NCBI GenBank assembly: GCA_964590435.1 | Contig: CAZPWT010000008.1 | Coordinates: 83,880-147,879 of the forward strand | Direction: 5' to 3' | DNA from: an uncultured Planctomycetia bacterium | GTDB lineage: Bacteria; Planctomycetota; MHYJ01; WSZJ01 | Length of the DNA stretch: 64,000 nt | Program-made: the position numbers and the translations under genes | Shown: positions 1,632 to 23,422 of the stretch, one piece after another | Layout: every line of letters starts with the position of its first letter | Position numbering within the stretch: the first letter of the stretch is position 1 | Notes under the pieces: generated by a model | Told to the model about the DNA's origin: nothing | The model's database searches: none | The model's input: the letters and a program-made list of their open reading frames with translations, nothing else

Positions 1632-1655
1632 CGCCGGCGCATTCTACCCGTCGCC

Positions 1656-1916
1656 CTACAGCGCGGCGCGCTTCTCCCGGACGAACTCCGCCAGCGCGTT
1701 GACGCTCGCGAACGCCTTCTTGCCGACCTCGGCGTCGGCGATGCGGATGCCGTAGAGGCGCTCGATGCCGACGACGAGCTCCAGCGCGTCGATCGAGTCG
1801 AGGCCGAGCCCTTCGCCGAACAGCGGCGCGGCGGGATCGATCGCCGCGGGCGCGAGGTCCAGCTTGAGCCGCGTGATGATCAGGTTCTTCAGGTCCGCGA
1901 TCATGTCTTCAGCCAT
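1656..1916 (-). CDS. Acyl carrier protein
   Basis: 86 aa with LGLDSIDALELV phosphopantetheine-attachment motif. Confidence 0.8.
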   Translation of the reverse strand: MAEDMIADLKNLIITRLKLDLAPAAIDPAAPLFGEGLGLDSIDALELVVGIERLYGIRIADAEVGKKAFASVNALAEFVREKRAAL

Positions 1917-1962
1917 GGGGCGGGGAGTGGACCAAACGAACGGGGGGGAGTCAATGAAGGGG

Positions 1963-3054: not shown

Positions 3055-3144
3055 CCCGGTCACAATAACAGGTTCCCCCACCCGTTTCCCCGCCTCACCT
3101 CGACCCTTCCCCTCCACGCCCTCCCTCTCTTATCCTCCCCACCC

Positions 3145-3891
3145 ATGCGCCGCGTCCTCACCATCGGGCTCTTCCTCGTCGCCGCCGCTGCGCTCTTCAT
3201 CACCGCCGCCTACGTCCTCGAGAGCTTCCGCCAGAAGGGCGACGTCCTGCTCAAGCCGCGCGAGAAGCCGGGGATGAAGTTCGCGGTGAATGAGACGCTC
3301 ACGCACGGCGACAAGACCGAGGCCCGCCGCTGGTCCGCCGATTACATGGACGAGATCGTCAACGTCGCGGGCGGCGTCCCCTCCGGCGTACGCCGCACTT
3401 ACGTCTCCTTCGAGATGGACGCCTCCGGCCCCCCGCGCCCCACCCCGCTCTCCTCCGTCGTCCTCCTCGACTCCCACGGCGCCCGCCTCGAAACCAGCGG
3501 CCAGCCCTTCACCACGGCCCCCACCTCCTGGCCCGACCCGTTCTACGGCGCCCTCCCCGACAAGCCCGTCCACCATTTCTCCGAGTGGGAAGCGCCCCAG
3601 GCGCAGGCCGTCGCTCTCGCCTCGCTGCTCGCCCGCGCCCCCGCCACCTCCGCCCGGCTCCTCTCGAAGCTGGAGCCCGACGACGTGAAGCTCGACGAGT
3701 TCGAGTGCTGGCGCATCCGCGCCGGGCTCGAGGCCAGGCTCGAGGACGGCCGCACGCTCAAGGTCGTCGGCGACCTCTTCCTCGACAAGAAGTCCGGCCG
3801 CCTGCTCGACATGGAATGGCGCGGGTGGTTCGACTCGGAAAAGGGCGAGGAGCGCGTCGGCTACATCCGCCAGCGCCGCCCGCGCAAGTAG
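3145..3891 (+). CDS. Hypothetical membrane-anchored protein
   Basis: Start at ATG 3145 (MRRVLTIGLFLVAAAALFITAAYVL, N-terminal TM anchor); upstream part of ORF 1765..3891 is Arg/Pro-rich with no protein-like character. Confidence 0.5.
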   Translation: MRRVLTIGLFLVAAAALFITAAYVLESFRQKGDVLLKPREKPGMKFAVNETLTHGDKTEARRWSADYMDEIVNVAGGVPSGVRRTYVSFEMDASGPPRPTPLSSVVLLDSHGARLETSGQPFTTAPTSWPDPFYGALPDKPVHHFSEWEAPQAQAVALASLLARAPATSARLLSKLEPDDVKLDEFECWRIRAGLEARLEDGRTLKVVGDLFLDKKSGRLLDMEWRGWFDSEKGEERVGYIRQRRPRK

Positions 3892-3963
3892 CCCTTCGGA
3901 ATCCCCGCCCCCTCCCGTAATATTCCGCCCCTTCCAAAACCACCACTCTTCTCAGGAGGTTCC

Positions 3964-4872
3964 ATGCGCCGTTTCGCCATCGCCGCGCTCGTCGCGGCGC
4001 TTGCCCTTCCCGTTCTCGCCGACCCGGTCGAGATCAAGATGGGGCAGAAGCAGGGGGACAAGATCACGCGGACGACGGAGTTCGGCGGTGAGGGAACGCT
4101 GACGATCGGGAAGGGCGAGGGGGCGCAGGAGCTCCCGTGCGGGATGAACGACGCCGAGGTCGTGGCGGAGGAGGTGCTGGAAGCGAAGGACGGGAAGCCG
4201 GTGAAGATCAAGAAGTACTACACGGTGAACCGGAACGCCTTCACGATCGAGGCGGCGGGAGTGAACCAGGTGAAGAGGAACTCGCTGGTCGGGCACATCG
4301 TGACGGTGGAGATGAAGGATGGGAAGCCGGTCGCGACGTGCGAGGCGGGGACGGAGAAGGAGCTGAAGAAGGAGAAGATGGGGGAGGAAATCGACGAGGC
4401 GCTGATCCCGGGCAAGCCGGTGAACGTCGGCGACACGTGGGAAGGCGACCCGGCGCAGGTGAAGAAGGCGTTCGCGCCGGACGACGGCGAGGTCGAGGAA
4501 GCCTCAGTGACGTGCAAGCTGGAGGCGGTCGAGGAGAAGTTCGGGCAGAAGTGCGCGAAGGTGACGGTGAAGATCTCGATGAAGGCGACGGGGAAGGACG
4601 ACGCGGGACAGAAGACCAAGACGAAGATCACGCTGGAGGGCCCGGTGTGGTTCGGGCTGACGGCGGGGCGGTCGCTAGGGATGGAGCTGGAGGGCAAGCT
4701 GCAGGTGAACGGCAGCCTGCCGAATGGCCAGCCGATGAAGATGGACATCGACCTGAAGGCGAAGGGGGAATCGAAGCCGGGCGTGGCGGACTTCGAGGCG
4801 AAGGCGGAGGAGGGCGACGAAGAGGAAGGCGAAGGGGACGAGGGCGAGGAAGAAGAAGGCGGCATGAAGTAG
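3964..4872 (+). CDS. Secreted hypothetical protein with acidic Glu/Asp-rich C-terminus (paralog A)
   Basis: Signal peptide MRRFAIAALVAALALPVLA; clear sequence similarity to the next ORF. Confidence 0.6.
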   Translation: MRRFAIAALVAALALPVLADPVEIKMGQKQGDKITRTTEFGGEGTLTIGKGEGAQELPCGMNDAEVVAEEVLEAKDGKPVKIKKYYTVNRNAFTIEAAGVNQVKRNSLVGHIVTVEMKDGKPVATCEAGTEKELKKEKMGEEIDEALIPGKPVNVGDTWEGDPAQVKKAFAPDDGEVEEASVTCKLEAVEEKFGQKCAKVTVKISMKATGKDDAGQKTKTKITLEGPVWFGLTAGRSLGMELEGKLQVNGSLPNGQPMKMDIDLKAKGESKPGVADFEAKAEEGDEEEGEGDEGEEEEGGMK

Positions 4873-4951
4873 CGGATGCGGTTGATCCCAAGCGCGGGGG
4901 CGGCGACGCCTCCGCGCTTTTTTCGTTTCCGGGCCGCGCGGCGACTACACT

Positions 4952-5851
4952 TTGCGGATGCGCGCTTCCCTCCCCGCGGCCCTGATCCTGCTGGCGGCCT
5001 CGTTCTGCGCCGCCGAGGACGCCGCGACGATCGAGATCAGGCCGGGCGTGCAGGCTGGTGCGAAGATCACGCGGACGATGCGGACCTCGGGGAAAGGGAC
5101 GATCACCGTCGAGGCCGGCGGCGACCCGAAGGAGTTCGAGTGCCGGATGGACGGGGTCGAGGAGGTCGCGGAGGAGGCGCTCGAGGCGAAGGACGGGCGC
5201 GCTTCCAAGGTGAAACGCCGCTACGACCGCAAGGAGTCGACGTTCGAGGTGCCGGCGGTCGGGAAGAAGGAAGAGAAGGCGAGCAGCCTGCCGGGGCTGG
5301 TGCTGACGCTCGAGCGCAAGGACGGGAAGACGTCGGCGACGTGCGCGGAGAAGAACGTCGAGCCGAAGGAGCTGGCGTCCGAGACGCTGGACGACGAATG
5401 GAGCGTGCCGCTGTCGCCGAAAGGGCCGGTGGCGAAGGGCGACGAGTGGAAGCCGGACGCCGCGGCCGTGAAGGCCTGGGCCTCGGCGCGCGGCCGGAAA
5501 GTCGAGGAGGCGGCGCTGTCGTGCCGGCTGGCGGAAATCGAAACGCGCGGCGGCCGGAAGTGCGCGCGGATCGAGGTCGATTTCGCCGCGAAAGGGACGA
5601 CGAAACCCGGGGAGAAGCAGCCGGAGCAGAAGCTCGCGTGGACGCTCAAGGGCGACGTCTGGTGGAGCCTCGACGACGCGCGGGTCGTGGCGTTCGAGCT
5701 GAAGGGCGACCTGACGCTCGAGTGGGACGTGCCGGCGGCCGCGGGGAAAGCGGCGGAGCACTGGAAGAGCGCGATGAAGATTGAGCTGGGGGGCGAGGGC
5801 AAGCCGGGAGAGGCGAAGTTCGGGGCGGAGCCGGCGGGGAACGGGAAATAG
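4952..5851 (+). CDS. Secreted hypothetical protein (paralog B of 3964..4872)
   Basis: Signal peptide; shared blocks with paralog A (KITRT, EAKDG, conserved Cys positions). Confidence 0.6.
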   Translation: MRMRASLPAALILLAASFCAAEDAATIEIRPGVQAGAKITRTMRTSGKGTITVEAGGDPKEFECRMDGVEEVAEEALEAKDGRASKVKRRYDRKESTFEVPAVGKKEEKASSLPGLVLTLERKDGKTSATCAEKNVEPKELASETLDDEWSVPLSPKGPVAKGDEWKPDAAAVKAWASARGRKVEEAALSCRLAEIETRGGRKCARIEVDFAAKGTTKPGEKQPEQKLAWTLKGDVWWSLDDARVVAFELKGDLTLEWDVPAAAGKAAEHWKSAMKIELGGEGKPGEAKFGAEPAGNGK

Positions 5852-6373
5852 TCAGCGAGAGCTCCGCCCAGACTTGGCCGGTGGGGTGCCAGTCCACCAC
5901 CGTGCACAAGCAGTCACCTCGTCATAGATTTCGGCGATCGACTTCCCCGAGCGGTCGTCCAACCACTCGCGCCACGGCTTGTCCGGACCGCCCGGCTTCT
6001 GGTTGAGATCGAAGAATCCGAATAGCTCCTGCAACACCTCGTGACACCGCGAACGCACGGAGCATGGATGCGTCTGGCCAGGCATTTCCGAGGAGAAAGA
6101 TGAGGCCTCTGGGTCGCAGATCCTGAGATCCTCAAGCGAGTCAACCATTGCGAGCACAACGGCCGGATCTTCTGTTCGTTCGAAGCGTTCGAAAATCTCT
6201 CTCCGGCTCTCAAGACTTCGCGTTCCGTCCGTCGACGCATCAATTTCCATCCGGGCCATCCAGTACGCCTGCTCGTCGACGGGATGCCCGGGCCAGTGAT
6301 CGGAACCCGGAGCTGTCGCGCAACCTGTTACCGCGGACAGCATGAGAGAGAGCATCGAACAGCGCCTCTTCAT
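5852..6373 (-). CDS. Hypothetical lipoprotein
   Basis: MKRRCSMLSLMLSAVTGC lipobox; ATG overlaps malQ stop (ATGA); longer ORF 5852..7450 is an out-of-frame overlap with malQ. Confidence 0.55.
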   Translation of the reverse strand: MKRRCSMLSLMLSAVTGCATAPGSDHWPGHPVDEQAYWMARMEIDASTDGTRSLESRREIFERFERTEDPAVVLAMVDSLEDLRICDPEASSFSSEMPGQTHPCSVRSRCHEVLQELFGFFDLNQKPGGPDKPWREWLDDRSGKSIAEIYDEVTACARWWTGTPPAKSGRSSR

Positions 6374-7860
6374 CGTCCCGGGTCCCTTCCGCACTCCTCC
6401 GTCACCGCCCTCAACCCCGCCAGCCTCTCCCCCACCGGGTGCTTCCCCGTGAACCGCCACCGCCAGTTTCCTTTCGCCAGCCCCGGCGTGTTCATCCGCG
6501 CTTCGCTCCCGAGGATCAGCACGTCCTGCAGCGGCGCGATCGCCAGCGCGGCGACGCTCGACCACGCGAGCTTGATGAACCTCCACGCCACGTCGCTCCC
6601 GTCGAACTTCAGGTAGAGCCTCACGGGGTGCCGTTCGACGTCGGGGAGCGCTTCCCACCACCCCGTCGTCGTGTCGTTGTCGTGGGTGCCGGTGTAGACG
6701 GCGGTGTTGGGGTCGTAATTCTCCGGGAGGAACGGGTTCTTCGGGTCGCCGTCGAAGGCGAACTGGAGGACGCGCATGCCGGGGAGGCCGACCTGCTCGC
6801 GGAGGTGGCGCACGGAGTCCGTGATGATCCCCAGGTCCTCCGCGAGGAACGGCAGCCCGCCCAGGGCTTTGCGGAGGGCCTCGAAGAACGGCGCTCGCGG
6901 CCCGGGCACCCACTTCCCTTCCTTCGCGGATTTCGCGCCGGCGGGGACGTGCCATGCGTCCTGGAAGCCGCGGAAGTGGTCGATGCGGGTGAGGTCGAAG
7001 AGGCGCGCGGCGTGCTTCGCGCGGCGGATCCACCAGTCGTAGCCGGTGCGGCGGAGGGCATCCCAGTCGTAGAGCGGGTTCCCCCAGAGCTGGCCGTCCT
7101 TGGCGAAGTAGTCCGGCGGGACGCCGGCGACGACGGTCGAGCGGCGGTTCGCGTCGAAAAGAAAAACATCGGTCGCGGACCAGGCTTCGCAGGAGTCCCC
7201 CGCGACGAAGATCGGCATGTCCCCCAGCAGCCGGACGCCCCGCGCCGCGGCGTACGCCCGCAACGCCGCCCACTGCCGGAACCACAGGAACTGCCGGAAC
7301 CGGTGCTCGTCGACCGCGGCCGCCAGTTCCTTCCGGGACCGCTCCAGCGCCGCCGGCTTCCGCAGCCGCAGCTCCTCGGGCCACTTCGTCCACGACTCGC
7401 CACCCCGCGCGTCCTTGATCGCCGCGTAGAGCGCCCAGTCGTCGAGCCACGAGGCTTCTTCCTTCGCGAACCGCTCCACCTCGACGCGCAACCGCGAGCC
7501 GCCCCTGAAATTCGCCCAGGCTTTGCGGAGAAGCGCTTCCCGTGCCGGACGGGCCGCGTCGTAGTCGGCGACGCCGTCGTCGAAGGAGCGCGCCGGGAGG
7601 TCGGCGGGGGCAAGAAGGCCATCGGCAACGAGATCCTCGGGGCTGACCAGCAGCGTCTCCCCCGCGAACGTCGAGTAGGCGGCGTAGGGCGAGTCACCCG
7701 CACCGAACGGTCCGACAGGGAGCATCTGCCACCAGGTCTGCCGCGCGGCGGCCAGCGCGTCGATCCACGAGCGTGCGGCGGGGCCGAGGTCGCCGACGCC
7801 GAAGCGCGACGGGAGCGAGGTGACGGAGAGGAGGAGGCCGGAGGAGCGTGGGAGGGGCAT
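6370..7860 (-). CDS. malQ: 4-alpha-glucanotransferase (amylomaltase)
   Basis: Motifs SGLLLSVTSLPS, MPIFVAGDS, NPFLPENY, YTGTHDNDT; start placed at internal ATG (ORF extends to 7947). Confidence 0.85.
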   Translation of the reverse strand: MPLPRSSGLLLSVTSLPSRFGVGDLGPAARSWIDALAAARQTWWQMLPVGPFGAGDSPYAAYSTFAGETLLVSPEDLVADGLLAPADLPARSFDDGVADYDAARPAREALLRKAWANFRGGSRLRVEVERFAKEEASWLDDWALYAAIKDARGGESWTKWPEELRLRKPAALERSRKELAAAVDEHRFRQFLWFRQWAALRAYAAARGVRLLGDMPIFVAGDSCEAWSATDVFLFDANRRSTVVAGVPPDYFAKDGQLWGNPLYDWDALRRTGYDWWIRRAKHAARLFDLTRIDHFRGFQDAWHVPAGAKSAKEGKWVPGPRAPFFEALRKALGGLPFLAEDLGIITDSVRHLREQVGLPGMRVLQFAFDGDPKNPFLPENYDPNTAVYTGTHDNDTTTGWWEALPDVERHPVRLYLKFDGSDVAWRFIKLAWSSVAALAIAPLQDVLILGSEARMNTPGLAKGNWRWRFTGKHPVGERLAGLRAVTEECGRDPGR

Positions 7861-8085
7861 GGCGTGGAAGTGTAGCAGCGCGGCGGGCAGTGTGGCGCAG
7901 TAGCCCTCGGCCTGGGAGAAGGCCGTGTTCAGGCCGTTTGCCTCCAACGAAAAACGGCATGAACACGGAAAGCACAGAGGGACGGAAAGACACGGAACGG
8001 TCAGTCTTAGGATAGAAGCGGATGGGATGGACTTCCGGCAGGTAGGCAGGAGACCTCGCAGGCCTGAGGCAAGTTACGGCCGCGC

Positions 8086-8430
8086 CTACGACCCGGCGGC
8101 GAACGATTCCCCTGAAGCGAGGCGCTTGACCACGGCGTTTGCGCAGATCTGGTACTGCGAAAACGCGGGTGTGTCGTCCTCAACGTACGCGATTTCGGCG
8201 ACATGCCACTCCGTCCCGCACTCGCGATTCGCAGCCTCGACTCCTGCCATGACCGCAATCTGCAGCTGAGCCTCGTCTATCGGATTGTGTCTGCCGGGAT
8301 GGACAGGCGGCAGCTTCACGATCATCACCCCGAACGCAGGCTGCTTGCTCAGGCGAAGCCCAAGGAGGTTGTGCGTCGGCCCGGTGATCCTCGAAACCTG
8401 GAAACGACCGTCAACGATGCTGAAAGTCAT
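8086..8430 (-). CDS. Hypothetical protein
   Basis: 114-aa ORF in a lower-GC patch, 4-bp overlap with upstream gene; no recognisable motif. Confidence 0.4.
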   Translation of the reverse strand: MTFSIVDGRFQVSRITGPTHNLLGLRLSKQPAFGVMIVKLPPVHPGRHNPIDEAQLQIAVMAGVEAANRECGTEWHVAEIAYVEDDTPAFSQYQICANAVVKRLASGESFAAGS

Positions 8431-8786
8431 CGGTCCTCCTGGGTCAGCTCCACCGCCCTCCCGTCCGGATCGCGCAACAGCGCCCTCAAGCCGTTCGGGC
8501 CGCTGTTGGGCTTATTCTCGACGCGCCAGCCCGAGTTCATCGCCGCATTGCAGCAGACCACGACGTCCGGCACGGCGAACCCGAGGCGCGTCGTTGCGTC
8601 CGCAACCTTGCCCTCGGGCAGCGGATGGATCTCCAGCGCCGCCTCACCGGCCTCCGCCGCGAGGTACGCCGGCCCCTTCCCCTTCTGTTCCTCTTCGAAA
8701 TCGAACCCGAGGCACTCGTAGAAATCCCGCAGGTCCTCGAGCTTGTGGGTCTTCAGCACGATCTTCGCGAATTCGGGCATCGTCAC
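8427..8786 (-). CDS. Glyoxalase/bleomycin-resistance (VOC) family protein
   Basis: Small VOC-like protein (EIHPLPEGK..GFAVPDV); overlaps downstream ORF by 4 bp. Confidence 0.55.
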   Translation of the reverse strand: MTMPEFAKIVLKTHKLEDLRDFYECLGFDFEEEQKGKGPAYLAAEAGEAALEIHPLPEGKVADATTRLGFAVPDVVVCCNAAMNSGWRVENKPNSGPNGLRALLRDPDGRAVELTQEDR

Positions 8787-9089
8787 TCCCTGAGGATCTC
8801 ATGGAAACGCTCGCGCCTCTATCTCGCCGTGATGCCCAGGTGGCGGAAATACCCAGTGAGACAGTCACGGGCGAGTTGCGATCTGGTGACCCCCCTGGGC
8901 TCGCGCCGTGCGGTCCAGCAACTTCAGGAGTGAGTCCGGAATCTGCGCCGAAACTGACTTCATTGGTCGCCGCTTCGCGGTCTTTGCTAGTCGCATTCCG
9001 CGATTCTATGCCAAGCGGAACACGACTTCGCGATTGACCATGCTTCCTGGCACGCCGCGCGCCGCCATGCAGCGACCCTTTCGGCTGAA

Positions 9090-9779
9090 GTGCTTACAAT
9101 GCCGGTCGAAATGGAACTCCGCGAACTGCGAGAGAAACTGGCCGACGCAAGAGCTCGCCTCGAATCGATCCTGCGACGCATGGCGTACTCGAGAGTCGAG
9201 CAAGCAGAGTACGACCGTGCGGCGGGCGAAGTTCATGAACTCGAACGGTCGCTCGCCCGGGTACTCGGCGAAGAGTTTGCGACGACGATCGACTTTCCCG
9301 TGGAGTGGGATCGAGGCGCGCCGCTGCCTCACGTCATCGCCGCCGAAGGCCGGACATTCCTGATATTCCTCGTCTCGGAGCCGGATCCGAACTGGGACGG
9401 CACCTACGTCAACGTGAAGGATCCCGCCGACCACCAAATCGAGCCTTACGCACTGGTGGAGTTCCTCCAGTGCACCTCGATGAAGCTGGGTTCACCCAAC
9501 GACGAAGTGTTTGCGGGGCACCCCCTCCGTGACCGCGGCATGGAACCCTACTGCGCGCAGGAGGTTCTGAATTCAAGATGGATTGCGGAGATCGAAGCGA
9601 TCAACCGGGTGCACGCCGGGTACAACCCCGCGCGCTGGAAAGACCTGAAGCACTACATCTTCTGGTTCCATGACTCCACGTTCGAATGCATCGCCGAAGG
9701 TTTTCGCGTGGAGACATTCCGAGAGTCGATGGCCGAGGTAGTCGCTCGCGCGTGCGATCGACTGATCGACAGGTCCTGA
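9090..9779 (+). CDS. Hypothetical protein
   Basis: 229-aa ORF with protein-like composition in a lower-GC region; no recognised domain. Confidence 0.45.
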   Translation: MLTMPVEMELRELREKLADARARLESILRRMAYSRVEQAEYDRAAGEVHELERSLARVLGEEFATTIDFPVEWDRGAPLPHVIAAEGRTFLIFLVSEPDPNWDGTYVNVKDPADHQIEPYALVEFLQCTSMKLGSPNDEVFAGHPLRDRGMEPYCAQEVLNSRWIAEIEAINRVHAGYNPARWKDLKHYIFWFHDSTFECIAEGFRVETFRESMAEVVARACDRLIDRS

Positions 9780-9786
9780 GTCGCTC

Positions 9787-10209
9787 CTACTCTCCGATCA
9801 CCTTCACGAGCACCCTCTTCGCCCGCCGCCCGTCGAACTCCCCGTAGAAGATCTGCTCCCACGGGCCGAAGTCGAGCTTTCCCTTCGTGATCGCGCACAC
9901 GACTTCGCGCCCCATGATCTGCCGCTTGTGGTGGGCGTCGGCATTGTCCTCGCCGGTGCGGTTGTGGTGGTAGCGATCGGGGGACGCGTCGAACGGCGCG
10001 AGCTGCTCGAGCCAGCGCTTGTAGTCCTCATGCAGGCCGCGCTCGTCGTCGTTGATGAAGACGCTCGCGGTGATGTGCATCGCGTTGACCAGGCAGAGGC
10101 CTTCCTTCACGCCGGATTTCGCGACGACCTGCTCGACCTGGGGAGTGATGTTCAGGAAGTCCATGCGGGCGGGGATGTTGAAAGTGAGGTACTCCGTGGT
10201 GGACTTCAT
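9787..10209 (-). CDS. YjbQ/UPF0047 family protein
   Basis: [65 protein letters not shown] matches UPF0047; start at internal ATG. Confidence 0.8.
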
Positions 10210-10365
10210 CGGCGTCCTGCCCTCCTTGCGAGTGGTCCTGGCTCCGCCATCGCGGCGGCTTGGGCGGCGGCGGCCGGTTCGCGAATCGCCGAGCTGACAT
10301 AGCATTTCGAACGCTGTCCCTGCCTCGATATACTCTCCCGATCGATTCTATCTCTGGAGTTCACG

Positions 10366-13300
10366 ATGCCGCGCATCTCAGCAGGTCTGCTCCTCGTGGC
10401 GGTCCTTTCACGCTCCGCTTTCGCCCAGCAGTCGCTTCCGGAGGCGAAGCTCAAAGAACTCAAGGAAGCGACCGTCTTCGTCAAGACGGACACTTCCCGG
10501 GTTCATGCCACGGGGTCGGGATTCCTGATCCTGAAGGACGGGGACACAGGTTACGTCGCGACCAATGCGCACGTCGTCGAGGCGCCGGCCGGGGCGAACC
10601 GCGCTGTCACGGTGGTATTCCTGAGCGGGACAAAGGACGAGTATTCCGTCACGGCAACGCCTGTCGGGGAGGACGCGGATCGCGACCTGGCGATCCTGAG
10701 GGTGCAGCGGGCCGGGTTGCCAAAGCCGCTCAGCCTTTCGGCGAAAGCAAAGCTGGTGGAGACCCTGCCGGTCTTCATCCTGGGATTCCCGTTCGGCGAG
10801 GCGCTGGCGACCAGCGAGAAGAGCCCCGCGATCACGATCGGCCGCGGATCGGTGTCGAGCCTCCGGAACGGGGACGACGGCGAGATCGCGATCGTGCAGA
10901 TCGACGGCGACATCAACCACGGCAACAGCGGCGGGCCCATCGTCGACTCTTCCGGCGCCCTCGTGGGGATTACGGTGGCCAAGGTGGAAGGAACCGGGAT
11001 CGGGTTCGCGATCCCGCCGCGGGAGCTGGACGGCATGCTCGCGGGACGGGTGATTTCCGTCGATTTCTCGGAACGATCGAACGGCGCAGGCTCCATCAAG
11101 CTGGAAGCAACCGTCAAGCTGATCGACCCGCTCGGGAAGTGCAAGGGAGTGTCGGTGCTTTTTGTCCCGAAGGCGAAGGCGAACCCGGTGGGAAAGCCGG
11201 ACAAGAACTGCTGGCCGCGGATCGGCCCCGATGCGCTGGAGTTCCAGCTCAAGGTGCAGGGATCGGTCGCGAAGGGCGAGGTCTCGCTGAAGGGGGAACC
11301 GGGAAGCCGCGTCGAGTACCTCCAGCAGCCCCGGTTCCTCGGGGCCGACAGCAAGCCGGTCTTCCTGCAGCCATCGGACTTCGTAGCGGATTTTTCGGGG
11401 GCGCCGGCGGCGGTCAAGCCGGAGAAGCCGGGGGACACGAAGCCGCCGGGAGATTCCGGCGGCGACTGGCTCGGGGGAGGCGACAAGCCGGGGGCCGACA
11501 AGCCGGTGGCCGAAAAGCCGTCCGCCTCGGGCAAGAACCTTGCGGGAAACCGGCGGACCATCCTCGACGCAACGGCAACCGAGATCGCGCTCAACTCCAA
11601 GGACGTCCTGCCGTGCCTCTTCTGGTCATCCGACGGCAAGTTCCTCTTCGCGACGGAGCGGAACGGCACCCTCCGGAAGATCTCATGGCCTGGGCTTGAC
11701 GAGGATCGGTCTCTATCCACGGGAGGGACCTGCGCCTGGGCGGGGCTGACGAAGGAAGGAGTCCTGGTGATCGTGGACTCAATCCAGGAAGGCTGGCTGC
11801 TGGACGCGGGAACGCTGGAAATCCGGCGCAAGTTCCCGGTCGCCGCCTCTCGCCGGTTCGCGTCCTCCCCCGCATCCTCCTACGCCTTCTTCCAGCGCGA
11901 ACGGGACAATCTGGACGCGTTCGACCTGAGGTCCGGGAAGCTCGCGAAGACCTACGTCGACCGTGATGTCGCGGCGCAGGCCCAGAAAATCCGGAAGCAC
12001 AAAGAAGGTGTCGTCCTCTCCGACTTCAATTTCCCCACGCTGACGCCGGACGGGAAGTACCTGTTCTGCATCGGATTTGAATGCATGCACCGCTTCAAGG
12101 TCGACGGCGCGAACCTGGTCTACGAGGAAATGGGGCCGCGGCTGGGCAACAACCCCCAGGGGATCCGGATCAGCAGCGATTCGAAGTACGTTTGCATGCT
12201 CTCGGGCGGGGGCAATTCGAATCCATCCGATCACCCGAAAGCCGGTGGCTACTCGACCTACATCTACAAGGTCTCGGACCTGCTCCAACCGGTAATGTTC
12301 ATCGCCTCCGGCGCCTATCCCCGCACTCTCGATTTCGACAAATCGACCGGCCTCATCTACGCACAGAACTACGAGTGCACCCTCATGACCTTCGGTGCCA
12401 AGGGTGCAAAGGAAAAGGAGTACGCCCTCAAGACGGGAGAGACGTCCCAGATGCTCTCGCACCCGTCCGGCTCCAAGGCGATCGCGCTGACGGAAGCCAA
12501 GCTCTGGGCGATCGAGCTGGGCTCCACCAACGCCCCGGTGGTCGGCGGCGCGAACGCCCCGCAGCCCGTCAAACCCGAGGTCACACCGCCGGCGGCCAAT
12601 GCGGGAGCATTCCTCGACATGCCGGATGCCCTGCAGCCGGCTGCGCGCCTCGCCCTCCGTGCTTCCGTCCCTGCGCTTCATCTCTCGCCCGACGGTGAGT
12701 TCCTCTTTGCCCTCGACATGTCAGAAGGGCGCGTCCTGAAGATCCGGGCCTCCGATCTCGGCATCGCGGCCTCCGCGGAGGTCTCCGCGGACTGCGCCGC
12801 GATGGCGGTCAGCGCGAAGGGCGATCGCCTCTACGTCGCCGCTCGCGGAGCCCGCGCGCAGAGCCAGGGCGACAACCCGAGGTGGAAAGGCCGCCTGACC
12901 GTGTTCGATGCGGCGCTCGCCAAACAGGGAGAGTTCGAGTTCGACGGCGACCCTTACGATCTTGCCGTGACGAATTCGGGCCTTGTCCTCGTCGTCGCCT
13001 ACTCGGATGCAAGCGCCTCGCTGCTGATCGACACGGCGCGCAAAGTGCCTCCCGTGAAGATCGGCTCCTCGCCCACCCACGGCTTCGTCCGCACCCACCC
13101 CGACCAGGCTCGATTCTACTTCGGGACCCTCGCCAGCTCCCCGCGCGACTTCGGCGCGCTCTACCTCACCGGGGACGCAAACACGCCGAACCCGGACCTG
13201 CCGAGCGTGCGGTACTCGAATCGCGGACGCCAGGAATTCGGAGGCCCGTTCGTGATTTCGCCGGACGGATCGCTGCTGTTCGGTTCCCACGGGGCCGTCC

Positions 13301-13626
13301 TCCGCATCGGCGCAGCCCCCGACAGCGGGTTCCAGCCCGCGGGCGTGACCGAACCGTGGCTCGGGGCCGCGAACGCAGCCGGATGGGACAACATGTTCGT
13401 TTCGACCGCCGAGGGATTCGTGAAGAGCATCTCAATGTCCACCCTCGCGACGCTGAAGGCCGTGAAACCCGGCGGAGTCATATCCGCGCTGGCCCTGGAT
13501 GCGAAGAAGCGGATGCTCTACGGGGTCGTGATCGACATCAAGCCGGGGACCGCGACTTTCCCGGAGTACCCTGTCCGTACCTGGCTGGCCGGCGACATCG
13601 TGGCCTGGCCACTGGAGAAAAAATGA
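10366..13626 (+). CDS. Secreted trypsin-like (S1) serine protease fused to a long repeat region
   Basis: Signal peptide; GYVATNAHVV (His), DLAILRV (Asp), NHGNSGGPIVD (Ser) catalytic-triad motifs; about 800 aa of repeat-rich C-terminal sequence (beta-propeller-like, inferred). Confidence 0.8.
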   Translation: MPRISAGLLLVAVLSRSAFAQQSLPEAKLKELKEATVFVKTDTSRVHATGSGFLILKDGDTGYVATNAHVVEAPAGANRAVTVVFLSGTKDEYSVTATPVGEDADRDLAILRVQRAGLPKPLSLSAKAKLVETLPVFILGFPFGEALATSEKSPAITIGRGSVSSLRNGDDGEIAIVQIDGDINHGNSGGPIVDSSGALVGITVAKVEGTGIGFAIPPRELDGMLAGRVISVDFSERSNGAGSIKLEATVKLIDPLGKCKGVSVLFVPKAKANPVGKPDKNCWPRIGPDALEFQLKVQGSVAKGEVSLKGEPGSRVEYLQQPRFLGADSKPVFLQPSDFVADFSGAPAAVKPEKPGDTKPPGDSGGDWLGGGDKPGADKPVAEKPSASGKNLAGNRRTILDATATEIALNSKDVLPCLFWSSDGKFLFATERNGTLRKISWPGLDEDRSLSTGGTCAWAGLTKEGVLVIVDSIQEGWLLDAGTLEIRRKFPVAASRRFASSPASSYAFFQRERDNLDAFDLRSGKLAKTYVDRDVAAQAQKIRKHKEGVVLSDFNFPTLTPDGKYLFCIGFECMHRFKVDGANLVYEEMGPRLGNNPQGIRISSDSKYVCMLSGGGNSNPSDHPKAGGYSTYIYKVSDLLQPVMFIASGAYPRTLDFDKSTGLIYAQNYECTLMTFGAKGAKEKEYALKTGETSQMLSHPSGSKAIALTEAKLWAIELGSTNAPVVGGANAPQPVKPEVTPPAANAGAFLDMPDALQPAARLALRASVPALHLSPDGEFLFALDMSEGRVLKIRASDLGIAASAEVSADCAAMAVSAKGDRLYVAARGARAQSQGDNPRWKGRLTVFDAALAKQGEFEFDGDPYDLAVTNSGLVLVVAYSDASASLLIDTARKVPPVKIGSSPTHGFVRTHPDQARFYFGTLASSPRDFGALYLTGDANTPNPDLPSVRYSNRGRQEFGGPFVISPDGSLLFGSHGAVLRIGAAPDSGFQPAGVTEPWLGAANAAGWDNMFVSTAEGFVKSISMSTLATLKAVKPGGVISALALDAKKRMLYGVVIDIKPGTATFPEYPVRTWLAGDIVAWPLEKK

Positions 13627-14999
13627 GAACACTCGCTGGCTGGCTCCTGCCGCTCCTCCTGTCCGCCTCGGTCGCCAACGCCGATTCCTGGTCGGTTACC
13701 GTCACGATCTCCGACGGGACCGAACTGCGCGGAACCCTGGACGTCGCTTCTTTCAAGGTCGAGGGCGCCCTGGGAGTCCTCGACGTCGACGCGAACAACG
13801 TCGAGATCATCACGGTCGAGGCCGGCAAGGCCCAGATCCGCACCCGGGACGGCTCCACCATCGCCGGAGTTCTCCGCTCCGGTCCCTGGAAGATCATGGC
13901 TTCCGTCGGTACCGTCGAAGTGTCCGCGGACAAGCTCAAGTCGCTTCGGTTCGACGGCATCGCTCCCGCGGGCCGCTCAGTGGAGAATCGTCCTCCCGGG
14001 GGCGCCACCGGCAAGCCGGAGTTGGTCTACAAACCGCCTGCGGAGACCGGGAAGGACATCGTCCTCCCTGCCGACTTCAAGGCGACCGCTTTGGAGGAAA
14101 CCGGCTCCTGGCACCGCGGGGCGGTGCTGTCGCGGAACGGCAGCACCCTCTTCGCCCTCGACGTCCGACTCCGGCGCCTCGTGCTCATTTCGACGTCGGA
14201 CATGAAAGTCACGGGCATCATTGATTCCGGTCTGCCCGACCTCTCCTCCTCGAATTCATCAGCGGATGCTTCCTGCTGGTGCCTTCTGCCCTCCGAGAGC
14301 AAAGCCGTCGTGGCCCAGGGAAGGCAGGTCGCCGTGCTCGACATTGCGAGCCGGAAGTGCGAACGCTCGTTTGGCGTCGAGAAGGAAATCCTGGACCTGG
14401 CGGGCGTCGCGGAGGACGCATGCATTGCGACGACGCCGGATTCGGCCGTTCTTATCGTCCCGTCACGCCAGGCCATCGTGCGCACCTGGAACGGGTCACC
14501 AGGCACTCTGAACATGACCCCGGATCGCGGGAGGATATTCGGCAAGGACGGCTGCTTCGTTGTTGCCTCAAACCCGGCCGACTCCTTCCACATACCCATC
14601 TCTGGGGGAGGTCGCTGGTACTTCCAGCTGGATTTCTCCGGAGACGGCCGCTTCGCGATCGCGTCCGCGGGAACCCTGTATCGCGTCGGGAAGGGAACCG
14701 TGGCCGATCTCGCGCTCGTCGCGGCCCTTCCCGCTCACAATGTCGCGGCGTTCGTGCCGGAGTCGCAGGCGTTTGTCCTGTTTCTTAAGGATGGCGTGGT
14801 GGAAATACGCGACCTCGGCACGTTCGAAGTGCGCAAGTCGCTTCAGGCCCCCTGCGGCGGTCTGGTCGCCGTGGCGGACCCCGCACAGCGATTCGTTTAC
14901 GCCGCCTTTGCCAAGAACTCCTACATCGGCAGCCGCTACTCGGGGTGCCAGAAGGCCTCGGGGCCGGGCAAGTGGTTCAAATTCGAAATCACGAAATAG
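13623..14999 (+). CDS. Secreted hypothetical protein, translationally coupled to the upstream protease
   Basis: ATG 13623 overlaps upstream stop (ATGA); signal peptide MRTLAGWLLPLLLSASVANA; repeat-like C-terminus. Confidence 0.65.
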   Translation: MRTLAGWLLPLLLSASVANADSWSVTVTISDGTELRGTLDVASFKVEGALGVLDVDANNVEIITVEAGKAQIRTRDGSTIAGVLRSGPWKIMASVGTVEVSADKLKSLRFDGIAPAGRSVENRPPGGATGKPELVYKPPAETGKDIVLPADFKATALEETGSWHRGAVLSRNGSTLFALDVRLRRLVLISTSDMKVTGIIDSGLPDLSSSNSSADASCWCLLPSESKAVVAQGRQVAVLDIASRKCERSFGVEKEILDLAGVAEDACIATTPDSAVLIVPSRQAIVRTWNGSPGTLNMTPDRGRIFGKDGCFVVASNPADSFHIPISGGGRWYFQLDFSGDGRFAIASAGTLYRVGKGTVADLALVAALPAHNVAAFVPESQAFVLFLKDGVVEIRDLGTFEVRKSLQAPCGGLVAVADPAQRFVYAAFAKNSYIGSRYSGCQKASGPGKWFKFEITK

Positions 15000-15032: not shown

Positions 15033-15749
15033 CTATTTCTTCGGCTCTTCCTCGCCTTTCTCTTCCGCGACAGCGAACGCCTCATCCTTGATCTCGCCGT
15101 CGACCGCCATCGCGCTGAACGTGTCCGTCACGCGGTTCTCGACGTCGCCCTTCCTGTCGAGCGTCTCGCGCTTGAGGAGCTCCAGTTTCTCGGCGTCGAT
15201 CCAGAGCGTCATCCGGAGCGCGCTCTTGCCGCGGCTCGCGGTGTAGGCCACGACCTTGACCGTGCGCTCGCCGATCTTCGCGTCCTCGAGGAACCTGAAC
15301 TCCGTGTACTTGCAGGGCGATTTCGACGGCCGGCCGCCGAGCGCCATCGTCAACTCCCGGAGCGGCGCCCGGACCGCAAGCTCGCGTCCCCGGGCCGCAA
15401 GGTCCTCCGGCGCGTCCTCCACCGCCGTCCCGTCCGGGTCGCCCCGCCGCACGCGCTTCCCGTCACAGACCGCCGACAACGAGTACGCGTCCTTGGAGGC
15501 CGGGTCGGCGTCGTCCACATGAAGCGCGACGCGGTTTCCCTCCTTGAACTGGAGCTTGATCGCGAACTTGCGCTTCTCCGCGGCGGAGTCGAGGTCCATC
15601 GTGAACTCCAGCGAGACCGTTTTCGCGGAAGCGATCTTCGCCTCGAGCTTCTTGACGAGCTCCTCGGCGGCGGAGTCGGATTTCGGCGGGGCGGCGTCTT
15701 CCGTGAAGGCGGCTGCGGAGAGGAGAAGGACGAGGCAGAAGGCGCGCAT
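15033..15749 (-). CDS. Secreted hypothetical protein
   Basis: Signal peptide MRAFCLVLLLSAAAF; convergent with upstream operon. Confidence 0.55.
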   Translation of the reverse strand: MRAFCLVLLLSAAAFTEDAAPPKSDSAAEELVKKLEAKIASAKTVSLEFTMDLDSAAEKRKFAIKLQFKEGNRVALHVDDADPASKDAYSLSAVCDGKRVRRGDPDGTAVEDAPEDLAARGRELAVRAPLRELTMALGGRPSKSPCKYTEFRFLEDAKIGERTVKVVAYTASRGKSALRMTLWIDAEKLELLKRETLDRKGDVENRVTDTFSAMAVDGEIKDEAFAVAEEKGEEEPKK

Positions 15750-15841
15750 GCTGGGCTCCATGTACCGGTGATGGCCTCGAACCTATCGAAATCCGCGGGT
15801 GGTGTCTTGCTTTCGGGAGAAGCGTTCGGTTTCCTGACCGG

Positions 15842-16336
15842 GTGACGAAGAAGCGACTCCGGTTCTACCTCGAAACCTCCTTCTGGAGGAGGCTGGCGGA
15901 CGACACATCTCCGCTGCGCCGAAGAGTCTCGTATCGCCTCTATCGCTTCCTCGCCGGTCGTCACGACGTGCTCGTGTCACCGCTCGTCTTCCGGGAACTG
16001 GAGCACACTACTTCCGCTGAGCTTCTCGGTCCGTTGATGCGGCGGCTCCGGAAAGCTCGCCCGGAAGGGCTTGCAGAGACGGCAGCGGTCCGCGAACGGG
16101 CCGCGGCCATCGTCGCCGAAGCGGGATGGGCAGGTGGCATGTGGACCGACGCTCTCCATATTGCTTTTGCTATGATCGGCGCCGCGGACGTGCTGGTGAC
16201 CTGGGACATCGCGGACATCGCCCGGAGGAAGACGCGAAATCTTGTCCGCCGCGTGGCGCGAATCCGCCACGTCGCAACGCCGGAACTCCTGACCCCGATG
16301 GAGACCCTGAAGTGGCTGCACCTCGCGACCCGATGA
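15842..16336 (+). CDS. PIN-like domain protein (putative toxin-like nuclease)
   Basis: GTG start; RFYLETSFW and DALHIAFAMIGAADVLVTWD resemble PIN motifs, but the first acidic residue is Glu rather than Asp. Confidence 0.5.
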   Translation: MTKKRLRFYLETSFWRRLADDTSPLRRRVSYRLYRFLAGRHDVLVSPLVFRELEHTTSAELLGPLMRRLRKARPEGLAETAAVRERAAAIVAEAGWAGGMWTDALHIAFAMIGAADVLVTWDIADIARRKTRNLVRRVARIRHVATPELLTPMETLKWLHLATR

Positions 16337-16584
16337 TGGCGGAACTGAAGGCATACCGCCGCAAGCTCGGCAGGCGCCTCGCGAATGCCGACCGCAATGG
16401 CCGCCTCGCGCAGGAACTTCGCAGCATCTGCCGGTCGGCGACGCGCTGGTACGACGCGCAGATCCAGCGGATGGAGCGCGAAGAGAGGGCGGCCCGGCGG
16501 AGCAGGCGCAGAGCCTCCGCCAGGAGCATCGAGCGACCGCGTCGCGCGCGGGCCGTGGCGCGAGCGCGGAAGAGCAAGGCGTAG
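16333..16584 (+). CDS. Small basic hypothetical protein coupled to the PIN-like gene
   Basis: ATG 16333 overlaps the PIN-like stop (ATGA); 83 aa, Arg-rich C-terminus; could be a spurious high-GC ORF. Confidence 0.35.
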   Translation: MMAELKAYRRKLGRRLANADRNGRLAQELRSICRSATRWYDAQIQRMEREERAARRSRRRASARSIERPRRARAVARARKSKA

Positions 16585-20139: not shown

Positions 20140-21600
20140 ATGCGCCTTCTCGCCGCGCTGTTTGCTGCCGCCGTGCTCGCCCTCCCCGCTTCAGCCCAGA
20201 TGCCCCCCATGCCCGGCCAGGAGGGGACGGATGCGTTCAACCTGGGCGTCCTCGGGGCCGAAGGGCTCCCGATCAAGAAGCCGGACGAATCGCTGAAACT
20301 CCCGCGCGGGGCCGTCGCCATCAAGGTGACGAAAATTCTCGAGGGTGGTCCCGCGCTCGAGGCCGGCCTGGCGGCGGACGACCTGATCGTGGCCGTCGGC
20401 GGGCAGCCGATGACGACGAAGCACATGCTGGCGGTCTACCAGCTGGTGGCGGCGATGGAAGCGGTGTCGTCGACGAAGAAGGGGGAGACGACGCTGACGG
20501 TGATGAGGGACGGGAAGCCGGTGAACCTCAAGCTCAAGCTGCCGGCGCTGGGGCCGCACGGCGCGAACTGCCCGGTCGGGTGCGGGCGGTGCGAGAAGCT
20601 GGTGGACGACTCGCTGAAGATCCTGACGGGGCTGCAGGAAGCGGACGGGGCGTTCCCGATCGGGATCGGCGGGCAGAACGGGCGGGTGGCGGTGACGAGC
20701 CTGGCGGGGCTGGCGTTCCTGGCAAATGGGAGCACGACGAAGGAAGGGACCTACGCGGACAACGTGGCGCGGGCGGCGAAGTGGGTCGCGGAGCGGTGCG
20801 GGAAGGAAGAAGTGAACCCGTGGGGGCAGGAGCGGCCGAAGGGTGGCGCGAACTGGAACCAGACGAACTGGTCGCTGGGGTATGGGTGCCTGTTCCTGAG
20901 CGAGATCTACCGGCTGGACCCGACGCCGGAGCTGGAGCAGCGGCTGACGGAACTGATGCAGACGATCGAGAAGAACCAGGAGACGTCGGGGGGCTGGGCG
21001 CACGGCCCGGGCGGCCCCAACGCCTTGAACTACGTGGAGTTGCAGATCGTCGGGAATCTCGAGCTCGCCGCGCTGGGAGCCCTTCGCAAGGCCGGGTTCA
21101 AGCCGTCGCAGGAGGTGATCGACAAGGGCGTCGCCTACATGATTTCGACGTCGGGCGGCGACGGCGGGATCGGGTACAGCGCGAACCCCGGCCAGCAGGG
21201 GATGGGCGACCCGGGGCGGACGGCGCTGGGCGCCTGGGCGTTCGGGATGCTCGGCATGCAGTCCCACCCCTTCTATGCCAAGATGGGCTCGTACTTCAAG
21301 CGCACGATGGAAGACCTGCCGGGGGGCCACGTTTCGCCGATCATGCACTACACGTCGGCGTCGTTTGCGTGCATGCACCTCGGGGCGGCGTACTGGAAGG
21401 ACTTCATGGCGCTGTTCCGGCTCGAAATCCTCGCGGCGCGGCGGCCGGACGGGACGTTCAGCGCGCGGCCGACGGAGGAAACGGTGGCGATGCACAACAA
21501 CACCGACCGGGAGCTCGGGCCGGGCTGGACGACGGCGAGCTATGCGCTGATCATGCAGGTCCCCCGGGGGAAGCTGAAGATTCTTACCGGAATGAAGTAA
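20140..21600 (+). CDS. Secreted PDZ-domain protein with alpha/alpha-toroid-like C-terminal region
   Basis: GGAGG before ATG; signal peptide; PDZ-like block (VAIKVTKILEGGPALEAGLAADDLIVAVGGQPM); C-terminal region not confidently assigned. Confidence 0.7.
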   Translation: MRLLAALFAAAVLALPASAQMPPMPGQEGTDAFNLGVLGAEGLPIKKPDESLKLPRGAVAIKVTKILEGGPALEAGLAADDLIVAVGGQPMTTKHMLAVYQLVAAMEAVSSTKKGETTLTVMRDGKPVNLKLKLPALGPHGANCPVGCGRCEKLVDDSLKILTGLQEADGAFPIGIGGQNGRVAVTSLAGLAFLANGSTTKEGTYADNVARAAKWVAERCGKEEVNPWGQERPKGGANWNQTNWSLGYGCLFLSEIYRLDPTPELEQRLTELMQTIEKNQETSGGWAHGPGGPNALNYVELQIVGNLELAALGALRKAGFKPSQEVIDKGVAYMISTSGGDGGIGYSANPGQQGMGDPGRTALGAWAFGMLGMQSHPFYAKMGSYFKRTMEDLPGGHVSPIMHYTSASFACMHLGAAYWKDFMALFRLEILAARRPDGTFSARPTEETVAMHNNTDRELGPGWTTASYALIMQVPRGKLKILTGMK

Positions 21601-22058: not shown

Positions 22059-22165
22059 TTCCGGAAGCGCGCTTCCACGAGGGCCGGGGCCGATGCTCCG
22101 GCCCTTTTCTTTTTGGCCGCCCGTTCCTGTAAGATGCGCTCCCCCTCGCCTTGCGGAGTTTCCAC

Positions 22166-23422
22166 GTGAAGCGCTTCTCATTCCTTGTCGCTTCCCTGTT
22201 CCTTCCGGCGGTTGTCTTTGCGCAGGCGGCCAAGCCCGTCGAGGCGCTGACGGCGGCGGAGTCGAAGGAGGCGGAGGCGGCGATCAAGGCGTATTTCGAG
22301 GGGAAGACGGATGCGGACCGCGACGCGGCGGTGGCGCGGATGGCGGCGATCGATCACCCGTCGAAGTCGGACCTCGGGAAGATGTCTGCGAAGGCGTTCC
22401 AGTGGACGAAGGCAGGGCCGCGGCTGGCGGAGAAACCGAAGGTGACGTGCACGGACCCGGAGCATGCGGGGGAGTTCGAGATCCAGGTGGCGTCGGGCGC
22501 GAAGAAAGGGACGCCGACGGGGGTGTGCATCATCCTGCACGGCGGCGGCGCGGGGGTCGGGGACAGCGGGCAGATCCGGTCGCTGCTGGGCGCGCCGGCG
22601 CCGGGGATGACGCACGTCTGGCCGACGGTGATCGAGAAGACGGACTCGGCGTGGAACACGGAGCGCGAGGAGCAGTACGTGCTCGCGATCCTGGAGGACC
22701 TGAAGCGCACGTATGCGGTGGATACGAATCGCGTGTACATCGCGGGGCACTCGATGGGCGGCTACGGGACGTGGTCGATCGGCCCGAGGCACGCGGACCT
22801 GTTCGCGGCCGGTGCGGCGATGGCGGGCGGGATTTTCGTCGGCGGCAAGGACGGCGACGGGAAGCTGATCATCCAGAGCGGGATCCTCCCGAACCTGAAG
22901 AACCTCCCGTTCTGGTTCTACAACTCGACGGACGACCAGCAGGTGCGGCCGGACAGCTCGATCCGCGCGGCGGAACTCCTCGAGGGGATGAAGAAGGACT
23001 ATGGCGCCTTCGATTTCGTGTTCAAGAAGTACGACAACATCGGGCACGGGCTCCCGAAGGAAGGGTGCTCCGAGATCTGGAAGTTCATGTTCGCGAAGAA
23101 GCGCGACCCGCTGCCCAAGCGCGTGATGTGGGAGCCGTCGCGGACCTACAAGACCGACTTCTACTGGATCCATGCCTCGGGTGGCGGCACCTTCGACGTG
23201 GAGCGCGACGGGAACAAGTTCACGGTGCGTGGCAGCACGGCGGTCTCGATCTACGTGAATGAGAAGATGATCAAGTTCGACCAGCCGGTGATCGTCGTGG
23301 ACGGAAGCGGGAAGGAACTCTTCAACGGCACGGTCAAGCCCTCCCTGGCCGTGATGCTCGACTCGATCGGCAAGCGCAAGGACCCGGAGATGTGGTTCAC
23401 CGCAAAGGTCGACCTTAAATAA
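22166..23422 (+). CDS. Secreted alpha/beta-hydrolase fold esterase
   Basis: GTG start after GGAG; signal peptide; nucleophile elbow GHSMGGYG; ILHGGG block. Confidence 0.7.
   Translation: MKRFSFLVASLFLPAVVFAQAAKPVEALTAAESKEAEAAIKAYFEGKTDADRDAAVARMAAIDHPSKSDLGKMSAKAFQWTKAGPRLAEKPKVTCTDPEHAGEFEIQVASGAKKGTPTGVCIILHGGGAGVGDSGQIRSLLGAPAPGMTHVWPTVIEKTDSAWNTEREEQYVLAILEDLKRTYAVDTNRVYIAGHSMGGYGTWSIGPRHADLFAAGAAMAGGIFVGGKDGDGKLIIQSGILPNLKNLPFWFYNSTDDQQVRPDSSIRAAELLEGMKKDYGAFDFVFKKYDNIGHGLPKEGCSEIWKFMFAKKRDPLPKRVMWEPSRTYKTDFYWIHASGGGTFDVERDGNKFTVRGSTAVSIYVNEKMIKFDQPVIVVDGSGKELFNGTVKPSLAVMLDSIGKRKDPEMWFTAKVDLK

Follow-up and report, generated by a model that had tools for sequence, protein, structure and literature searches.

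Proteases of the HtrA family (DegP, DegQ and DegS; MEROPS family S1C) hold a central position in quality control and signalling at bacterial envelopes, and what is understood of their regulation concerns almost wholly their PDZ domains. Other periplasmic proteases rely for their activity and their choice of substrates on a second, non-catalytic repeat protein, as described for Prc-NlpI in E. coli and CtpA-LbcA in Pseudomonas. The catalytic subunits of these two systems are S41 C-terminal processing peptidases, and NlpI and LbcA are TPR lipoproteins that bear no relationship to the protease and whose genes do not usually overlap with the protease gene. Combinations of a serine peptidase with a beta-propeller are found in prolyl oligopeptidase (family S9) and tricorn, where propeller and active site are rigidly packed together in a single chain and the catalytic part is an alpha/beta hydrolase or the tricorn core. 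Finally, the magnetosome proteins MamE and MamO illustrate how an active protease works beside a degenerate one. Here, we describe two overlapping genes from an uncultured Planctomycetia bacterium (contig CAZPWT010000008.1, assembly GCA_964590435.1), located in a stretch of 64,000 nucleotides (nt) that was analysed as a whole and is termed the window. The first gene encodes a secreted S1C protease that carries beta-propellers and no PDZ domain, and the second encodes a secreted, non-catalytic partner protein whose propeller is an ancient paralogue of the last propeller of the protease. Wherever the surrounding genes could be read, proteases with this propeller are accompanied by the partner gene. 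No paper on the propeller-tailed protease architecture or on the gene pair was found in the literature.

Both genes are encoded on the forward strand, and the ATG of gene 2 (13623-13625) overlaps the TGA of gene 1 (13624-13626), with a GGAG element located 5 nt upstream of the ATG (Table 1). The initial annotation had already reported a 1086-amino acid (aa) secreted S1 protease with an intact triad, followed by a 458-aa signal-peptide protein that starts within the protease stop codon (ATGA), and both open reading frames (ORFs) are indeed present. Public assemblies that contain this DNA carry independent gene calls with identical products of 1086 and 458 aa, which are named, where the source gives a name, "trypsin-like peptidase domain-containing protein" (protease) and "hypothetical protein" (partner). 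The guanine-cytosine (GC) content at third codon positions is 0.84 and 0.81 for the two genes versus 0.88-0.96 for most of their neighbours. Bacterial operons often contain 4-nt start/stop overlaps, so that such an overlap means little by itself; the junction goes beyond chance because the adjacency recurs in all nine independent loci detailed below, six of which present the 4-nt overlap.

The N-terminus of gene 1 reads by eye as a Sec signal peptide (MPRISAGLLLVAVLSRSAFA, followed by QQ) with an AXA site and without a lipobox. Within the adjoining trypsin-fold domain, aa 50-202 match the Pfam family Trypsin_2 (PF13365) with an E-value of 4.6e-26 (92.7 bits against a cut-off of 27.6), and the catalytic residues occur in canonical motifs: H69 in TNAHV, D107 in DRDLAIL and S188 in GNSGGP. 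S188 does not vary across 66 homologues, in which H69 and D107 show a conservation of 90% or more, and the triad is likewise intact in every partner-linked orthologue with an aligned S1C domain. The nearest relatives in PDB and NCBIfam are DegP, HhoA and HtrA1 proteases, with matches restricted to aa ~40-225 (DegP-like 5y28, E = 4e-17). Whole-protein NCBIfam scores lie far below all HtrA equivalog cut-offs, the best being 85.8 versus 416.2 bits for TIGR02037, and no PDZ domain was matched in a Pfam scan that admitted E-values up to 0.1. By domain and triad, gene 1 is thus a member of family S1C, and it lacks the PDZ domains and the scores of canonical HtrA proteases (DegP, DegQ, DegS and HhoA). 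A role in anti-phage defence was considered and dropped, as PADLOC matched only the generic trypsin-like domain (RT-Protease, LmuA and Avs1b, aa 26-222) and did not match the partner, and both proteins carry signal peptides.

For the region downstream of the catalytic domain, the initial annotation proposed about 800 aa of repeat-rich sequence. The long tail was recovered, but it does not consist of sequence repeats: an AlphaFold2 (AF2) model built from 66 aligned sequences (mean predicted local distance difference test, pLDDT, 82.3) resolves it into a 115-aa beta-sandwich, termed the mid domain, and two seven-bladed propellers, termed propA and propB-P. The only repeat that Tandem Repeats Finder detected in the DNA is a 15-nt unit (x3) at 11472-11520, inside linker 1. 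These approximately three copies encode part of the disordered GDKPG-type linker between mid and propA and are a likely source of length variation, the protease of locus L003 being shorter by ~26 residues at this position. The mid domain is modelled without helices at a pLDDT of ~95 and occupies the position of PDZ1 in HtrA proteases; its profile retrieved no relative among Pfam families and PDB sequences. PropA comprises 28 strands with pLDDT values above 90, and propB-P is modelled at lower confidence, with only three sequences covering aa 761-1086. Foldseek comparisons of the models of both proteins with the PDB returned only generic single or tandem WD40/YVTN propellers and no structure that combines a trypsin fold with a propeller.

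The partner was initially described as a second secreted repeat protein. Its N-terminus does read by eye as a Sec signal peptide (MRTLAGWLLPLLLSASVANA, followed by DS, with an AXA site), but the remainder is better described as a paralogue of the last propeller of the protease, preceded by a tandem small beta-barrel domain, termed Ndom. In the AF2 model (45 sequences, pLDDT 86.6, predicted template modelling score, pTM, 0.81), Ndom shows ten strands that are arranged as two units of five. Its profile displays a faint Sm/LSM- or SH3-like similarity among PDB and Pfam entries (E ~0.02), which is too weak for an assignment to the Sm/LSM group, and this candidate classification was dropped. Ndom is also found alone, in two to three tandem copies and fused to a DnaJ-type CXXCXGXG zinc finger (P0174, P0183-P0198), and it appears to be a mobile, undescribed domain. 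The best Foldseek matches of the partner model are seven-bladed propellers (target TM-score 0.64-0.70), and its profile matches the YVTN propeller 1l0q (E = 3.1e-46), the beta subunit of hydrazine synthase (E = 2.5e-19) and YncE. The partner propeller belongs to the YVTN family; neither TPR motifs nor a lipobox cysteine after the signal peptide are present. The 458-aa partner (P0226) is represented in a 90%-identity protein collection by the 161-aa fragment P0121, and the failure of a word-indexed homology search with the partner to return relatives is a database artefact of this fragment and not a true absence. A profile search with the partner alignment added one family member, all further matches being generic YVTN/WD40 proteins.

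The two proteins are connected by their C-terminal propellers. Comparison of the partner-family profile with the propB propeller of the protease using hhalign yields a match over the whole length (99.7%, E = 1.1e-25, 303 columns) that extends to a shared C-terminal closing strand (GDIVAWPLEKK in the protease, GDLYRFELPK in the partner), whereas propA is only distantly similar to the partner profile (70%, E = 4e-5). The partner propeller is an ancient paralogue of propB. BLAST splits propB into two old lineages, the protease-borne propB-P and the partner-borne propB-Q, which had already separated when the sampled loci diverged. In these comparisons, propB-P of the window matches the propellers of partner-linked proteases of 700 aa with E-values between 1e-37 and 1e-57 and is orthologous to their single propeller.

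The initial annotation suggested that the conservation of the gene pair be checked across genomes, and the pair proved not to be confined to this one. An exhaustive search of representatives, clustered at 50% identity, recovered 79 partner-family members, 49 of them with E <= 1e-10; our own hidden Markov models assign 40 to the Ndom-propB and 12 to the Ndom-Ndom-propB architecture. Among 8000 scored candidates, more than 500 are relatives of the protease, which form a widespread planctomycetal branch; this family is large and modular, with many architectures. Starting from the partner, an S1C protease gene is located directly upstream and on the same strand in all seven contexts that were read: the window, L003 (a Planctomycetota metagenome-assembled genome, MAG), L005 (a Planctomycetia MAG), L014, L015, L016 and L017. 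In L014 the upstream protease gene is truncated and its remainder is propB-P. Starting from the protease, both S1C-mid-propB proteases examined (L018 and L019) are followed by an Ndom-Ndom-propB gene. Taken together, a propB-carrying protease and an adjacent partner are found in 9/9 independent loci, on the same strand and no more than 10 nt apart, and in all nine the upstream protease ends in propB. The junctions are 4-nt overlaps in six loci (ATGA in the window and L005, GTGA in L003, and further overlaps of either type in L016, L018 and L019) and gaps of 2, 2 and 10 nt in the other three, and a purine-rich GGAG-like element precedes most of them. This arrangement persists although partner identity across loci falls to about 25%. 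No conserved stretch of 7-10 residues exists in the diverse alignments, and a pattern search derived from three close partners returned the known loci plus L020, an additional pair locus that is closely related to L003 and was not counted among the nine. Proteases with propA as their only propeller present a different picture: at L008 and L010, one of which is from Singulisphaera acidiphila, the triads are intact and no partner gene is found nearby. The presence of the partner therefore tracks propB and not the protease as such. The pair at L018 (5001-8836) consists of a 704-aa S1C-mid-propB protein and a 574-aa Ndom-Ndom-propB protein with an ATGA overlap. Its contig and that of the window stem from the same sequencing run (SRR13076506) and have GC contents of 0.664 and 0.679, respectively, and L018 may be a paralogous pair in the genome or community of the window.

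The history of the protease differs along its length. Among the classified protease matches, the S1C-mid-propA-propB architecture is limited to the window protein and two orthologues. The S1C-mid-propA part of the window protein is 56% identical to the solo protease of L008, compared with 35-41% to proteases of the propB type, and the protease of this lineage is chimeric. As a solo-like S1C-mid part is combined with a partner-linked propB, the catalytic module was exchanged or fused, with propB-P and its partner remaining together. In comparison with L003 and L005, identity amounts to 74-78% for S1C, 56-70% for propA, 40-48% for propB-P, 38-45% for Ndom and 31-33% for propB-Q, so that sequence change has been quicker in both propB lineages than in the catalytic domain. 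Over seven loci, propB-P and the partner yield congruent distance matrices (Mantel r = 0.82, p ~0.002), and the two were therefore inherited together without partner swapping. A fusion of both propeller types exists in P0175 (687 aa, from a Logan contig of 9147 nt), which consists of a signal peptide, propB-P, a Pro-rich linker and propB-Q in gene order and includes neither a protease domain nor Ndom; it may be taken as a Rosetta-stone-type hint that the two propellers work together. At L011, a propA-propA protease is followed by a propA-only protein with a 1-nt overlap, which is the same logic as the propB pair, built with the other propeller type. The wider L011 locus (843-13156; ENA ERZ24794679, NODE_1181) contains three S1C-mid-propA(n) genes and the 453-aa propA-only protein. 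The first of these proteases presents the replacements H to Q, D to C and S to A, and the third H to Y and D to G, so that two paralogues, predicted to be catalytically dead, flank the intact P0006, an arrangement that recalls MamO beside MamE.

The pair is a well-supported and conserved module without a name, whose function we infer from gene context and domain homology. With a probability of roughly 45%, it encodes a two-subunit extracytoplasmic protease in which the non-catalytic partner docks on propB-P and serves as an adaptor or regulator. The analysis shows how the domains are arranged, that the triad is intact, that the propellers are homologous and that the two genes have long been co-inherited as strict neighbours; to this, the reading adds contact between the proteins, a direction of regulation and the nature of the substrates. 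In the proposed mechanism, subunit 1 would be an active endopeptidase of the HtrA clan (S1C) with a novel beta-sandwich and YVTN-type propellers on flexible Pro-rich tethers instead of PDZ domains. Subunit 2 would be co-transcribed and probably translationally coupled, and the Sec signal peptides would export both proteins to one compartment, where the partner would pair with propB of the protease to form a double-propeller platform. From there, the partner may select or present substrates or gate the activity, which is the job of PDZ domains or separate adaptors elsewhere. The fixed stoichiometry proposed in the initial annotation is conjectural, as are the roles it suggested for the partner (substrate, inhibitor, chaperone or co-receptor). 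A docking adaptor or regulator agrees better with the evidence than a substrate or an inhibitor.

Several points weigh against a physical complex. It is suggested only indirectly, by the P0175 fusion, which is a single metagenomic sequence, and by the congruent trees, which would follow from co-inheritance alone. Overlaps of 4 nt, being common in operons, are no proof of stoichiometric assembly, and paralogues may lie side by side simply because they arose by tandem duplication. The single-chain model of gene 1 lacks confident packing between its domains (pTM 0.50). Additionally, 72 of the 120 best protease matches are S1C-mid-propA proteins of ~720 aa, and the two whose context was read work without a partner. 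The fast evolution of the partner (31-45% identity per domain versus 74-78% for S1C) would be compatible with a co-evolving interface and just as well with relaxed constraint or with diversification driven by the target.

A more far-reaching version of the adaptor model, which we regard as rather doubtful, sees the pair as a new regulatory design of the HtrA clan. Here, a heterodimeric double propeller, formed by propB-P and the obligatory, coupled paralogue propB-Q, would replace control by PDZ domains, the Sm/SH3-like barrels may clamp the Pro-rich tethers or an envelope ligand, and the propeller pair would be a conserved core that recruits different catalytic modules. Such recruitment is suggested by the exchange of the catalytic module in the lineage of the window together with the fusion of both propellers in a protein without protease domain, and the binding of Pro-rich tethers by an SH3/Sm-like Ndom is pure speculation.

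The partner could also be co-expressed with the protease and act in parallel. In this case, propB and the partner propeller would bind the same extracellular or periplasmic ligand, such as a polymer, an envelope component or prey material, and the partner would concentrate the target for the protease without forming a complex. Both propellers are exported and of the YVTN type, a family known from surface-layer and ligand-binding proteins, they have motifs in common (e.g. SPDGR...G.V.RLG), and the long flexible tethers suggest reach over rigid assembly. Nevertheless, a shared ligand leaves the strict tracking of propB by the partner and the P-Q fusion unexplained, and the early separation of the two lineages fits complementary roles better than redundant ones, which makes parallel binding unlikely.

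That the partner is a dedicated substrate or pro-protein of the protease, with cleavage of the linker freeing Ndom or maturing the propeller, receives some appeal from the ~40-aa low-confidence linker between its two domains and from the fact that protease-plus-substrate operons exist in bacteria. This linker is the least conserved part of the partner (20-25% identity), with P132 alone nearly invariant, and displays no conserved cleavage motif. As homology to a domain of the protease itself is not expected of a substrate, and P0175 joins the propellers in the absence of any protease, such a role is decidedly improbable.

Co-encoded periplasmic inhibitors are a known arrangement, with AprI/Inh for serralysins and ecotin for trypsin-like proteases as examples. 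An exported, non-catalytic partner that is, judged by the gene layout, tightly co-expressed could likewise be a cognate inhibitor or immunity protein that suppresses the periplasmic protease until it is secreted or a signal arrives. However, a 458-aa protein with a propeller homologous to the protease tail resembles no known inhibitor fold, no inhibitor family in Pfam, NCBIfam or PADLOC matched the partner, and the solo propA proteases at L008 and L010 possess equally intact triads without such a gene nearby, so that inhibition is very improbable. Finally, the adjacency could be a meaningless remnant of a tandem duplication of the propeller segment in a large, modular family that expanded in Planctomycetota, with the paralogy of the propellers in its favour, but this is hard to believe given direct adjacency in all nine loci at such low partner identity, a maintained coupling junction, a pair that outlived the swap of its catalytic module, and two intact ORFs with conserved domain boundaries.

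Table 1. Features of the protease-partner gene pair, with positions counted from the first nucleotide of the window.
Feature	Position	Strand	Description
Gene 1, secreted S1C (HtrA-like) protease	10366..13626	+	1086 aa; order signal peptide, S1C, mid, linker, propA, linker, propB-P
Signal peptide of gene 1	10366..10428	+	aa 1-21, AFA/QQ; read from the sequence; same N-terminus in orthologues
S1C trypsin-fold domain	10438..11052	+	aa 25-229; AF2 pLDDT > 90
Catalytic codons	H69 10570-10572; D107 10684-10686; S188 10927-10929	+	canonical motifs
Mid domain	11056..11397	+	aa 231-344; all-beta 8-strand sandwich, invariant L-I-D-P motif; AF2
Linker 1	11398..11541	+	aa 345-392; disordered, Pro/Gly/Lys-rich; AF2
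PropA	11542..12525	+	aa 393-720; seven-bladed beta-propeller; AF2; type of the abundant solo proteases of ~720 aa
Linker 2	12526..12645	+	aa 721-760; disordered, Pro-rich; AF2
PropB-P	12646..13623	+	aa 761-1086; second propeller, YVTN-type; ends GDIVAWPLEKK
Coupling junction	13614..13626	+	GGAG 13614-13617, AAAAA spacer, ATGA
Gene 2, secreted non-catalytic partner	13623..14999	+	458 aa from ATG; order signal peptide, Ndom, linker, propB-Q
Ndom	13683..13964	+	aa 21-114; two tandem 5-strand small beta-barrels; duplicated in some partners
Partner linker	13965..14084	+	aa 115-154; Pro-rich, low confidence
PropB-Q	14085..14996	+	aa 155-458; seven-bladed YVTN-type propeller

The window contains one copy of each domain type of the pair. 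Upstream, the pair is flanked by a divergent YjbQ gene, and downstream by a convergent gene of the LolA/RseB-like type. The flanking GH77, glyoxalase and YjbQ genes are syntenic with L003, although rearranged, and none of them accompanies the pair at other loci. Since no flanking gene travels with the pair, the unit consists of the two genes alone. The downstream neighbour (15033-15761, - strand) encodes a secreted LolA/RseB-like protein with weak matches to LolA_like, MucB_RseB and LolA1, and L003 carries a tandem-duplicated version of 446 aa at a distance of 5 kb from the pair. This gene was dropped as a component, being convergent in the window and 5 kb away in L003, with no such Pfam match among the genes listed around the other pairs; its vicinity probably reflects synteny rather than function. 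A 409-aa gene upstream of the pair in L003 was also rejected as a member of the unit, as it has no homologue in the window. Scans for promoters and terminators, tRNAs and Rfam families yielded nothing relevant to the pair. Further downstream, a PIN-domain protein (15842-16336, + strand) and an overlapping ORF of ~83 aa (16333-16584, + strand) look like a pair of the toxin-antitoxin type, and PIN and PhdYeFM genes are also located near the solo protease of L010. Two other genes of the window are candidates for envelope proteolysis: a PDZ-containing DUF6288 protein (20140-21600, + strand) and a protein with a short Peptidase_S9 match (22151-23422, + strand; E = 3.6e-07).

MamE and MamO are divergent S1C proteases that match gene 1 far below the NCBIfam cut-offs (E = 9e-13 and 7e-10), and their accessory domains are PDZ, magnetochrome and TauE, in a magnetosome context and without propellers. 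The YVTN propellers of the Methanosarcina surface-layer protein 1l0q, YncE and hydrazine synthase beta are seven-bladed and extracytoplasmic, as is the partner; none of these proteins is known to be coupled to a protease, and the N-terminal tandem beta-barrel is specific to the partner family. As in prolyl oligopeptidase and tricorn, the propellers could filter or channel substrates, but those of gene 1 are attached by disordered linkers of 40-50 aa, show no fixed packing in AF2 and accompany a different catalytic fold. Prc-NlpI and CtpA-LbcA offer a functional analogy only, since the protease described here belongs to S1C instead of S41, the partner has neither TPR nor lipobox, and the candidate adaptor is paralogous to a domain of the protease itself. 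With DegP, DegQ and DegS, gene 1 has in common the trypsin-fold domain, the H/D/S triad, the GNSGGP motif, the Sec signal peptide and the extracytoplasmic location. A widespread planctomycetal branch of S1C has swapped PDZ for propellers, and in one sub-branch a dedicated paralogous propeller subunit has remained its neighbour from a time before the split of the sampled lineages. Without complex formation, the pair would be an ordinary operon of secreted paralogues. If a complex does form, the pair would represent a novel route to substrate selection or gating in a trypsin-fold protease, and it would offer a first entry point to the function of two unannotated domain families, the mid sandwich and the N-terminal barrels of the partner, and to the poorly understood envelope biology of Planctomycetota. 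In place of the PDZ domains of the HtrA family, gene 1 and its relatives carry a novel beta-sandwich and one or two YVTN-type propellers on long disordered tethers, and gene 1 is accompanied by a dedicated partner that is encoded next to it.

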